A stretch of DNA of 23,523 bases, taken from IMG/VR virus record IMGVR_UViG_2703718820_000020, positions 1-23,523 of that record, one strand, 5' to 3'. Shown here one piece after another: positions 18,001-21,000 of the stretch (positions within the stretch are counted from its first letter, which is position 1; every line of letters starts with the position of its first letter). Made by a program: the position numbers. This stretch comes from a virus. Taxonomy: Duplodnaviria > Heunggongvirae > Uroviricota > Caudoviricetes.

Positions 18001-21000
18001 CCCGAATGGCGCGGCTTACAGCAAGATAAGGCCTACATGATTTGACAAATCCGCCAGAGCTATCGCATACTGACCGCACTAGAACTTCAAAGCGGTCATC
18101 CGCACCCGATAGCTTTGCGGCTTTTTTATGCCTGCAATTTGGCATAGTCACATCCGTACAAAGGTCGGGTGGAGAGGCGTAATACAATACCCGCAAGGGG
18201 AATATGCCCGGAGCATCTTTGAAGGCTCTAGTTGACACCCGATCACCAGCCACTAACTGGTGATTGCTAACTAAAACTTCAAAGGAGGTCATCATGACCA
18301 GTCAACTCATCCCCGTATTCAACGGCACTATCGACAACGAAACAATTCTTCTAGTTAACGCTCGTGATCTACACTCTTTTCTTGGTGTGGGCAGAATGTT
18401 CGCGCACTGGGTTAAAGAACGCATTGCTGAATATGGATTCGTTGAAAGCCAGGACTATATTTTGATTTGCCAAAATGGGCAAACCAAAGGGCGAGGAGGT
18501 GATCGCCGTAGCAAGGACTACCACCTAACTCTCGACACAGCCAAAGAACTGGCGATGGTTGAGCGTAACGAAAAAGGCCGCCAGATCCGCCGATACTTCA
18601 TCGAGTGCGAAAAGAAACTTCGCCAGAGCCTTTTACCTGCACCAATGAACATCAACTACCCTCTATCGTGGTTTTCAGAGCACCACCCCTACTCCATGAT
18701 GAGCTATGTTGATCGAAAAACTCTTAACCTGGACGTTTCTGTGCTCTTCGACATGCCAAGCCCAACTATGCGCATCCTCAACGAGCTACACAGCAAAGGC
18801 TATAACGTTGACGCAGCTGTCGCTGAATTTAACGCCTTCAAGCATCTGACGGAAGAAATGCGCCGCACGCTACAGGATATTTCAAGATTGTCAGATCGAA
18901 ATTCCCGAAAAGGCTTCTCGTTAAGCCTGTAGCTTCCCCTACCATCCCCGACATCCCGTCGGGGTTTTCATATCTGGAGACAAAAATTTGAAACAGATCG
19001 CTTTCTACAGGCGTTCTGGAAGGCCCGGTGCCTTCCGTGGGTTAAAAGAACGCGTCACCTGGATGATTCAGTCTCGTGGTCGTCCTGTTACTGGCAGTGA
19101 AATAGCAGAGAAATTTGGTGTTTCACTTTGCGAGTTCAACAAGGTAGCTCGCAGCCTGACAAAGGGCAGTAAGGTTGTGAAAATAAAGGCTTCAGAACCA
19201 TTCACCACAGACACCGGAATCGTTGATCGCTTTTTCTCCCTCGAATCAAATCCTCGTCGTGACACACCTCGCTCACGCAATGCCGTTTCTCCATTCAGTC
19301 GCAGAAGCCGTGAACACGCAGCAAAAAACTGTCGCGAGGAATACGTGCAAAAGGCCGAACGCCGTCGCCGACTGATTAAAGCAGGACTTTACATTGATGA
19401 GTTTGAAAACGCGCTATGACGAAAAAATACACCCTCATTTACGCAGATCCCCCCTGGACATTCCGCGACAAAGCAACCGATGGTCAACGCGGTGCAAGTT
19501 TTAAATATCCGGTCATGAGTCTTCTGGATATCTGCCGCCTCCCGGTATGGGAACTGGCAGCCGATAATTGCCTGTTGGCTATGTGGTGGGTGCCTACACA
19601 ACCACTTGAAGCATTGAAGGTTGTAGAAGCGTGGGGCTTTCGTCTGGTGACGATGAAAGGATTAACCTGGAACAAATGCGGGAAAAGACAGACCGACAAG
19701 CTGGTCATGGGTATGGGTAGCACCACTCGCGCTAACAGCGAAGACTGCCTTTTTGCAGTGAAAGGAAATCTGCCCGAACGCATTAACGCCGGAATAATCC
19801 AGTCATTCACTGCACCGCGCCTTGATCACTCCCGCAAGCCGGATATGGCTCGAGAAAAGCTTGTGCAACTTCTTGGCGATGTTCCCCGGATAGAACTGTT
19901 CGCCCGCCACACCTCGCATGGATTTGATGTATGGGGTAACCAATGCGGCACACCATCCATTGAGATGGTTCCGGGTATTGTTAAATTTCTGGAGAAAACC
20001 AATGAGCGAAAAAACGACGTTGACAAAGGCATCACCAGTTGAATTAAGGCAGTGTCTGGAAATCGCAAATCAACTTGCCAGAAGTGGAATACGATTTGTT
20101 CCAATCCCGATTACAGCAGATGCAGAACTTCATCTGTTTGGTGAAATTCTTTCCCGAAAGCTGGATGAACTGGAAAAGCTGGTAGAAGAAGCTGACACCT
20201 CACCAACCGTATAACAGCCCCACCGACATTAAAATATCAGGAGAAAAAAATGAACGCAGTGCTCACAGAATTGAACAAATTAGGAAAAGCATCAGCCGAA
20301 AGTATTTCTAAAGGTCTCAATATTGATTTGAATGACGTTATTGACACTCTATGGAAGTTAAAAAACCAGGGGGTAGTAACTGTAAAAAATGGCATCTGGC
20401 AGGCAGTTGCAAGGGAAGTGGACAAAAAACCAAATATCGCCTCAGTGCAGCCAGTGCAGCCAGTGCAGCCAGTGCAGCCAGTGCAGCCAGTGCAGCACAA
20501 CATTATAGGTGACCTGCTACGTAAATCACGGAAAGAAGCGCGTCGCGCCGGGCGGAAACAGAAACGATGGGAGGGTGCATGTAAGGCGCTGAAAGAACTG
20601 AATAAATACCGTGACTTGATCAACGAATTGTCAGAGTGAGCGAATCACAGAGAGAATATTTTGAGAAACAACCCGCGTACATTAATATTGTTTTTCCTTT
20701 CTCTAATGACGGGCGGTATCCTGTTATTCGCAGGAACAACATTATTTATTTTTGTTGCCCGGCTAACTGCGAGGATAATGACATGAAAATCACATTTGAA
20801 AGTTACGGTTTAACAGCAAGTGTGGTTATCTCCAGCTCTATATTCGAAAGCCGCAAACATCAGCATATCGTTGATGCAGTGAAACTCAAAGCCCCGGAAG
20901 TTACCGTCACAACACATGGACTTTTCAGGATACGAACGACGTTGACTACAACACACCTCTCGGCATGCCGTGTTTATGATATGGCACTCAAGGAATACAA

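Follow-up and report, generated by a model that had tools for sequence, protein, structure and literature searches.

The best-described relative of the locus analysed here is the adenine methyltransferase M.EcoPA8orf6770P-PNB-2 (also named M.ECPA8_3172P-PNB-2) of the Shiga toxin (Stx) 2a phage phiPA8, which consists of a catalytic protein, gp5, and a small partner, gp6 or PNB-2 (Gong, Chakraborty and Koudelka, Nucleic Acids Research 2023; PMC10810198). The counterpart of this system was found in IMG/VR record IMGVR_UViG_2703718820_000020, a virus of the class Caudoviricetes, where three genes on the plus strand (18988-20214) encode PNB-2, an MT-A70 family methyltransferase and a homolog of the lambda protein Orf63. 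The window referred to below is the whole stretch of DNA that was analysed, positions 1 to 23,523 of this record (23,523 nucleotides, nt).

In phage phiPA2, an IS629 insertion in gp5 lowers both spontaneous induction and amoeba killing, and both are restored by gp5 supplied on a plasmid but not by its DPPW-to-APPA mutant (PMC10810198). The purified methyltransferase alone shows activity near background on RNA and on DNA, including dam- DNA. It co-purifies with His-PNB-2, crosslinking yields a 1:1 species, and PNB-2 confers substrate preference on the complex, whose rate of S-adenosylmethionine (SAM) consumption with RNA exceeds that with DNA more than 13-fold and which prefers 16S ribosomal RNA (rRNA), most of all in 30S subunits (PMC10810198). 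A preprint (10.1101/2023.09.20.558713) reports that deletion of either gene lowers induction, that extracts of cells with the enzyme resist Stx better, and that nanopore signals change in four regions of 16S rRNA, with k-mer centres at 832, 1098/1100, 1132 and 1190. A second described enzyme is M.EcoGV of Escherichia coli O104:H4 C227-11, which Gong et al., citing Fang et al. 2012, call "highly similar" and describe as methylating GATC in vivo when over-produced without PNB-2 (PMC10810198).

More distantly, the locus resembles METTL3-METTL14, which produces N6-methyladenine (m6A) in RNA, and the ciliate complex MTA1c (MTA1-MTA9-p1-p2), which produces the same base (6mA) in DNA; the MT-A70 catalytic fold and the DPPW-type motif are shared with both. 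In these complexes, the catalytic subunit relies on partner proteins for nucleic-acid binding. The partner in the window, in contrast, is a winged-helix phage protein of small size with no relation to METTL14, MTA9, p1 or p2; a second subunit with the MT-A70 fold is absent, and the enzyme, at 208 amino acids (aa), has no extra domains.

Identity and organization of the locus

The locus and its upstream boundary comprise the following features:

18946-18972, plus strand: intrinsic-terminator-like hairpin, CCCCGAC-ATCCC-GTCGGGG then TTTT, between the antirepressor (ant) gene and the PNB-2 gene, from a terminator scan
18988-19419, plus strand: PNB-2 (homolog of EcoPA8orf6775P), 143 aa, TTG start, GGAG 8 nt upstream
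19416-19419, plus strand: ATGA, the overlap of the PNB-2 stop and the methyltransferase start, read from the sequence
19416-20042, plus strand: MT-A70 family N6-adenine methyltransferase, 208 aa, Pfam PF05063 with E=1.3e-22
20002-20214, plus strand: homolog of lambda Orf63 (DUF1382), 70 aa, isoelectric point (pI) 4.84, GGAG 7 nt upstream

The methyltransferase is identical to M.EcoPA8orf6770P of phiPA8 in 208 of 208 residues, and the upstream protein matches phiPA8 PNB-2 in 141 of 143, the substitutions being S56 for G and S101 for P in the window. phiPA8 also has the same gene order, ATGA junction, upstream terminator and downstream orf63 homolog; the differences are that the gene in the position of PNB-1 has an AntA N-terminal domain here and another one in phiPA8, and that the prophage in the window appears to lie in wrbA. 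The hairpin at 18946-18972 has the same sequence as the predicted Rho-independent terminator quoted between gp7 and gp6 (PMC10810198). In E. coli O104:H4 C227-11, the chromosome carries the module at 99.7% nucleotide identity and the PGAP annotation gives the same three open reading frames (ORFs) with the same boundaries. M.EcoGV, reported as a GATC adenine methyltransferase on over-production from a plasmid, was assayed without PNB-2, and its equation with the window gene rests on the phrase "highly similar" of Gong et al. Judged by sequence, the locus is certainly the published two-protein adenine methyltransferase of Stx-type prophages, joined by a lambda Orf63 homolog, and as such is already known.

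The explanation that we favour, with confidence only a little better than even, is that this locus encodes the published two-subunit MT-A70 adenine methyltransferase of Stx-type lambdoid prophages, in which PNB-2 gives a preference for rRNA and which raises induction. Under this explanation, PNB-2, a basic winged-helix protein, would be translated from TTG 18988, with its stop overlapping the methyltransferase start, and the two proteins would form the 1:1 complex known from the published experiments; the MT-A70 subunit would hold the DPPW catalytic site, and PNB-2 would bring nucleic-acid binding and substrate preference. The preferred substrate would be, as reported, 16S rRNA in the 30S subunit, and the outcome, also as reported, more frequent spontaneous induction of the prophage, with release of toxin; on its own and when over-produced, the catalytic subunit could methylate GATC in DNA.

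The methyltransferase

The match to the MT-A70 family (PF05063) scores 81 bits against a cut-off of 23.9 and covers profile positions 1-172 of 172; the corresponding PHROG match has E=2e-117. The catalytic motif DPPW occupies residues 11-14 (nt 19446-19457), so that a [DNSH]PP[YFW] motif is found near the N-terminus, with motif IV before motif I. D11, P12 and W14 are invariant in six homologs, and residue 13 is Pro in five of the six and Ala in RothD. The closest solved structures by sequence are Tetrahymena MTA1 (E=7e-13) and METTL3 (4e-05), both from MT-A70 enzymes that need partner subunits (MTA1, METTL3/14), which supports the favoured explanation. The methyltransferase tail beyond residue 187 occurs only in the Stx clade, and its last 13 codons lie inside the orf63 homolog. 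A role of such a tail in docking of PNB-2 was considered and rejected: the enzymes of RothD and HK639, which have PNB-2, share their tail with that of BUCT711, which does not.

Pfam scans of the other larger ORFs of the window (about 30), seven of which have no Pfam match, detect no restriction endonuclease domain. The neighbors of the methyltransferase gene are those for PNB-2, the Orf63 homolog, a DUF1627 protein and an AntA-type protein, so that the adjacent cognate endonuclease of a type II restriction-modification (R-M) system is missing. A defence system was also discarded, PADLOC having returned generic methyltransferase models only. With regard to identity, the non-specific enzymes M.EcoGI and M.EcoGII are 349-aa DPPY proteins and hence not this gene; M.EcoVT2Dam was considered as well, and no link to the window methyltransferase was established.

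PNB-2 and its coupling to the methyltransferase

PNB-2 contains 21 Arg among its 143 residues (pI 10.75) and consists of a winged helix-turn-helix (HTH) region (approximately residues 19-85), an Arg-rich linker and a long C-terminal helix that ends with GLYIDEFE. It has a PHROG match with E=4e-78, and no Pfam HTH family is found above the cut-off. Homologs with 43-55% identity align from residue 1 and have ATG-AAA/AAG exactly where the window has TTG-AAA; among the first 25 residues, Y7, R8, R9, G11, G14, F16, G18, E21, R22 and W25 are invariant in 22 family members. Some phage records (P13374) annotate a shorter, 118-aa PNB-2 from the ATG at 19063, which on inspection of the sequence has no ribosome-binding site. 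Given the ATG of the homologs at the same codon, the conservation of the N-terminus and the lack of a ribosome-binding site at ATG 19063, TTG 18988 is a well-supported candidate for the PNB-2 start. The published PNB-2 clone starts at the same TTG (primer CATATGTTGAAACAGATCGCTTTC; PMC10810198).

Inspection of the sequence finds no Shine-Dalgarno motif before the methyltransferase ATG, and the junction, CTATGA, is kept in HK639, phi80 and RothD. From the ATGA overlap and the lack of a ribosome-binding site of its own for the methyltransferase, we infer that the two proteins would be made by coupled translation in roughly equal amounts. A frameshift fusion at the junction was considered and dropped, no slippery heptamer being apparent on inspection. 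A fusion of PNB-2 with the methyltransferase, suggested by the annotation [quoted passage not shown] in phi191 and Ss-VASD, was likewise rejected, this annotation being borne by the 208-aa protein; we take it to be an old COG-style name. PNB-2 matched phrog_1680 only and not phrog_359, the profile of which has about 117 extra N-terminal positions before the methyltransferase match.

Only 13 nt separate the T-run of the terminator from the PNB-2 ribosome-binding site in the window; the PNB-2 gene abuts or overlaps the preceding gene in HK639, phi80 and RothD, and in other phages it directly overlaps exo. This arrangement bears on an alternative that we consider improbable, namely that PNB-2 is an independent regulator of the early operon (it is named "regulator" by NCBI), linked to the methyltransferase by gene order only, and that the latter is a free-standing orphan. 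Such independence would accord with PNB-2 homologs that have no methyltransferase within 3 kilobases (kb) (L092, L093 and L096, and L007 of SopranoGao), with the close relatives of the methyltransferase that work without PNB-2 in P22-like phages, and with phage vB_EhrS_59, in which the two genes are about 11 kb apart. However, co-purification, 1:1 crosslinking and a changed substrate preference have been published for the identical methyltransferase and the nearly identical PNB-2 (PMC10810198), the ATGA junction is conserved, the methyltransferase has no ribosome-binding site of its own, and the overlap with exo in other phages leaves no room for an operator, which argues against an autoregulator of the controller type. 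A regulator resembling the controller (C) proteins of R-M systems was rejected on similar grounds, there being neither an intergenic operator region nor a Pfam HTH family above the cut-off.

The small overlapping ORF

The 70-aa ORF overlaps the 3' end of the methyltransferase gene by 41 nt (20002-20042) in a different frame. It matches Pfam DUF1382 (E=1.4e-28), a PHROG family (E=1e-29) and, over residues 8-60, the PDB entry 8DSB (E=3.4e-11), the structure of lambda Orf63, which is a dimer from the exo-xis region and promotes the lytic pathway (PMC10869804). The ORF is a separate predicted exo-xis gene, a homolog of lambda Orf63 that shares with it the DUF1382 and 8DSB matches and the exo-xis location and differs in that its 5' end overlaps the methyltransferase gene. 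Phages of the RothD type have the homolog another 1-2 kb downstream, so that the overlap is specific to the Stx-phage arrangement. No evidence of a functional link between the Orf63 homolog and the methyltransferase was seen.

The strong matches of all three ORFs to phage protein families in PHROG indicate that they are real and did not arise by chance. The initial annotation, made from the sequence alone, had described a DPPW-containing MT-A70 methyltransferase with no restriction partner, translationally coupled to an upstream 143-aa Arg-rich protein with a probable TTG start, and a 70-aa acidic ORF overlapping it in another frame; this description is borne out throughout by the results above.

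Prevalence of the module

Among phage records, 117 contain the methyltransferase at 99% identity or higher and 100 contain PNB-2 at 95-99%, counts that fit the published co-occurrence of more than 83% (PMC10810198). Of 5426 complete E. coli genomes, 303 carry the module, and in 132 of these its coverage is 80% or more. Many Stx2a phages (e.g., LC616052.1) carry only a truncated methyltransferase that corresponds to residues 85-208 and is 88.8% identical. The truncated Stx2a copies, together with the fraction of genomes that reach this coverage, indicate that the module is commonly lost or disrupted in nature, as it is by the IS629 insertion in phiPA2.

The PNB-2 family and its variable downstream slot

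To characterize the context of the PNB-2 family, 99 loci encoding PNB-2 relatives, 94 of them non-identical, were taken from viral and genome collections, and the downstream genes were classified within 3 kb on the same strand. At least one DNA methyltransferase gene, from five classes in all, is present in 86 of the 94 loci. The clades are as follows:

Stx-phage clade, 20 loci: always the window-type MT-A70, then the orf63 homolog
RothD/Klebsiella-type clade, 36 loci: in nearly all, an MT-A70 about 49% identical to that of the window, usually via the same ATGA junction; in one, a PF05869 Dam instead
HK639/phi80/Enterobacter-type clade, 32 loci: a small ORF (DUF1317 or a 55-aa protein) in almost every case, then variable genes
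Other PNB-2, 6 loci: two with methyltransferases, four without any within 3 kb

Within the HK639/phi80/Enterobacter-type clade, the variable genes are distributed as follows:

MT-A70 only: 8 loci
PF05869 "phage Dam" only: 6 loci
C5-cytosine methyltransferase and PF05869 Dam: 6 loci
N6_N4 methyltransferase only: 5 loci
Classic Dam, with or without a C5 enzyme: 2 loci, not counting phi80 itself, whose damL is frameshifted
C5 and MT-A70: 1 locus
No methyltransferase: 4 loci, two of them on short contigs

DndB-like genes of this clade occur in loci already counted under Dam or N6_N4. The small ORF lies nearly always between the PNB-2 homolog and the variable methyltransferase (L005, which is phi80, 2926-3960; L039, L045, L063, L095 and others). 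In P22-like phages without PNB-2 (Tyrion, BUCT711), too, DUF1317 stands ahead of the MT-A70 gene. For two more conserved genes of the slot, whose products are 250 aa and 265 aa long, Pfam gives no match. Of the whole analysis, only this link between the PNB-2 family and an exchangeable methyltransferase slot may be new.

Ribosomal RNA or DNA as the substrate

Several observations, from this comparison and from the published work itself, weigh against the explanation that centers on rRNA. The genes that follow PNB-2 vary among MT-A70, classic Dam, PF05869 Dam, N6_N4 and C5-cytosine methyltransferases and DndB-like genes across the 94 loci, and PNB-2 proteins that are at least 89% identical to that of HK639 adjoin all five methyltransferase classes. 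The window methyltransferase shares 66-75% identity with its counterparts in P22-like phages (Tyrion, BUCT711) and phage BP9, all of them without PNB-2, and only 48-49% with those of RothD and HK639, which are coupled to PNB-2. The methyltransferases of the P22-like phages and BP9 are preceded by other small proteins, and a profile search of these upstream proteins detects no distant PNB-2. Because the window enzyme is closer to the PNB-2-less enzymes than to the coupled ones, the Stx-phage pair looks as if recombination had joined a PNB-2 gene to a methyltransferase of a lineage without PNB-2, and the comparative data argue against an old, dedicated partnership of PNB-2 and MT-A70. Furthermore, the pair is present in phages that are not described as Stx-converting (HK639, RothD), so that an Stx-specific purpose cannot be its general function. 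Taken with the tie of PNB-2 to DNA-modification genes, this occurrence argues against an ancestral role specific to Stx or to rRNA.

With regard to the experiments, the case for rRNA comes from a SAM-consumption assay and from a nanopore comparison that has not been peer reviewed, with no chemical identification of the modified base. In E. coli 16S rRNA, the k-mer centers 832, 1098, 1100, 1132 and 1190 are not adenines and share no obvious motif, and none of the reported centers is at a GAUC site; for these reasons, the RNA sites and a GATC specificity on DNA cannot be reconciled by sequence. Since the methyltransferase has no ribosome-binding site and its start overlaps the PNB-2 stop, replacement of gp6 may lower methyltransferase translation even with unchanged transcription. 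The orf63 homolog was probably present in the published "two-gene" co-expression construct, because the reverse primer matches the end of this gene.

A possible but less probable alternative is that the enzyme is primarily a phage DNA N6-adenine methyltransferase, Dam-like (GATC or relaxed), which would modify the DNA of phage or host in the lytic cycle for restriction evasion or control at the DNA level, with PNB-2 as a DNA-binding companion or regulator and the rRNA activity as a secondary or in vitro effect. The in vivo methylation of GATC by over-produced M.EcoGV, as described by Gong et al. (PMC10810198), speaks for this alternative, given the 99.7% identity of the module in C227-11. The same holds for the slot headed by the PNB-2 homologs, which contains a DNA methyltransferase of one of five classes in 86 of the 94 loci, C5-cytosine enzymes included. 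C5-cytosine enzymes are a family characterized as DNA methyltransferases. In addition, PADLOC groups the window enzyme with type II methyltransferases (E=4e-86), its best solved relative, Tetrahymena MTA1, is a DNA 6mA methyltransferase, and the winged-helix fold of PNB-2 matches many DNA-binding regulators. The purified enzyme, however, is little active on dam- DNA in vitro, with or without PNB-2 (PMC10810198), and GATC is not strongly depleted or enriched in the window (75 sites observed versus about 91 expected). The association with the slot could be positional only, this being a known place of accessory genes in lambdoid phages. Moreover, E. coli hosts already methylate GATC, so that an enzyme with this specificity would give little obvious protection there.

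The initial annotation had supposed that the methyltransferase protects phage DNA from host restriction, a role that finds no direct support, given the near-background activity of the purified enzyme on dam- DNA, the preference of the holoenzyme for 16S rRNA and a phenotype of more spontaneous induction and greater virulence (PMC10810198). Its statement that the target sequence is unknown has to be revised insofar as Gong et al. put GATC on record for the over-produced solitary homolog M.EcoGV. The roles of both coupled proteins had also been called unknown; for PNB-2, this is superseded by the published complex and its substrate preference (PMC10810198), and the small ORF turns out to be a homolog of the known lambda Orf63.

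A broader view of PNB-2 can be offered tentatively. Rather than being a subunit dedicated to rRNA targeting by one MT-A70 enzyme, PNB-2 might represent a family of basic proteins with a winged helix that go along with an exchangeable cassette for DNA modification (MT-A70, two kinds of Dam, N6_N4, C5-cytosine, DndB-like) in enterobacterial lambdoid prophages and serve as an adaptor or regulator independent of methyltransferase class. The pairing in Stx phages would then be a recent recombinant, and its main substrate could be DNA.

Genomic setting

The window represents the early region of a lambdoid prophage of the Stx-phage type (relatives in Sepvirinae/Oslovirus, 96-99% identity), stx itself being beyond what the window shows. 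The other features are:

1-831, minus strand: Q antiterminator
1058-4559, minus strand: NinG, a DUF1367-family gene (NinB/Orf according to the annotation of a related phage), primase and helicase
5761-6474, plus strand: cI-type repressor
6881-7225, minus strand: HicB-family gene
8220-9002, plus strand: Rha-type regulator
9847-11534, plus strand: RecT and exonuclease (the latter by position and the annotation of related phages)
14267-15778, plus strand: Ea22-like genes
16826-17938, plus strand: DUF551 protein
18264-18932, plus strand: AntA-type antirepressor (Pfam AntA PF08346, E=7.4e-28)
20250-20639, plus strand: DUF1627 protein
21286-21585, plus strand: excisionase
21614-22948, plus strand: integrase
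22945-23523, plus strand: flavodoxin-like gene, consistent with wrbA (FMN_red E=3e-15), overlapping the end of the integrase gene

By the gene order of the window, the three-gene locus belongs to the "exo-xis" part of the leftward early operon. The prophage appears to be integrated at wrbA, the classical attachment site of Stx2 phages.

The AntA-type gene sits at the position of gp7/PNB-1 of phiPA8; the C-terminal approximately 95 aa of its product are identical to those of phiPA8 gp7, and the N-terminal domain differs. According to Gong et al., gp7 is not co-expressed with the methyltransferase, and they did not find it to be part of the enzyme (PMC10810198). Just 5' of this gene, an Rfam search identifies sRNA-Xcc1 (RF02221) at 18163-18252 on the plus strand, with 65.4 bits versus a gathering score of 53 and over the full model length, 3' of a strong promoter-like site, TTGACA-18-CATACT (18042-18071). 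The match is antisense to a 130-aa ORF (17903-18295, minus strand) that is hypothetical in the P13374 annotation and may be spurious.

Other observations concern more distant parts of the window. The HicB-family gene fills a variable slot after cI that harbors a BsuBI/PstI-type R-M system in Lyz12581Vzw and phi191. Rfam matches to isrK (8116-8191) and C4 antisense RNA (8216-8303), both on the plus strand, lie directly 5' of, or overlap the start of, the Rha/Ash-type gene 8220-9002; this element presumably resembles a P1-like c4/ant-type immunity element, here inside a lambdoid prophage. Within the DUF1627 gene, about six copies of the 9-nt unit CAGCCAGTG (20440-20495, plus strand) encode (VQP)n. 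The DUF1627 homologs of P13374, PA8 and phi191 are 81-90% identical, and the tblastn alignment of phi191 splits across two frames just before the repeat; because of this change of frame, the CAGCCAGTG repeat may be a variable tract.

Significance

Published work ties the module to the rate of spontaneous induction of Shiga toxin prophages and hence to toxin output, and the module has been proposed as the first prophage-encoded rRNA methyltransferase. The links of the partner family and the nearest relatives of the methyltransferase, which have no PNB-2, bear on whether the pair generally works as a "16S rRNA methyltransferase that protects against Stx".

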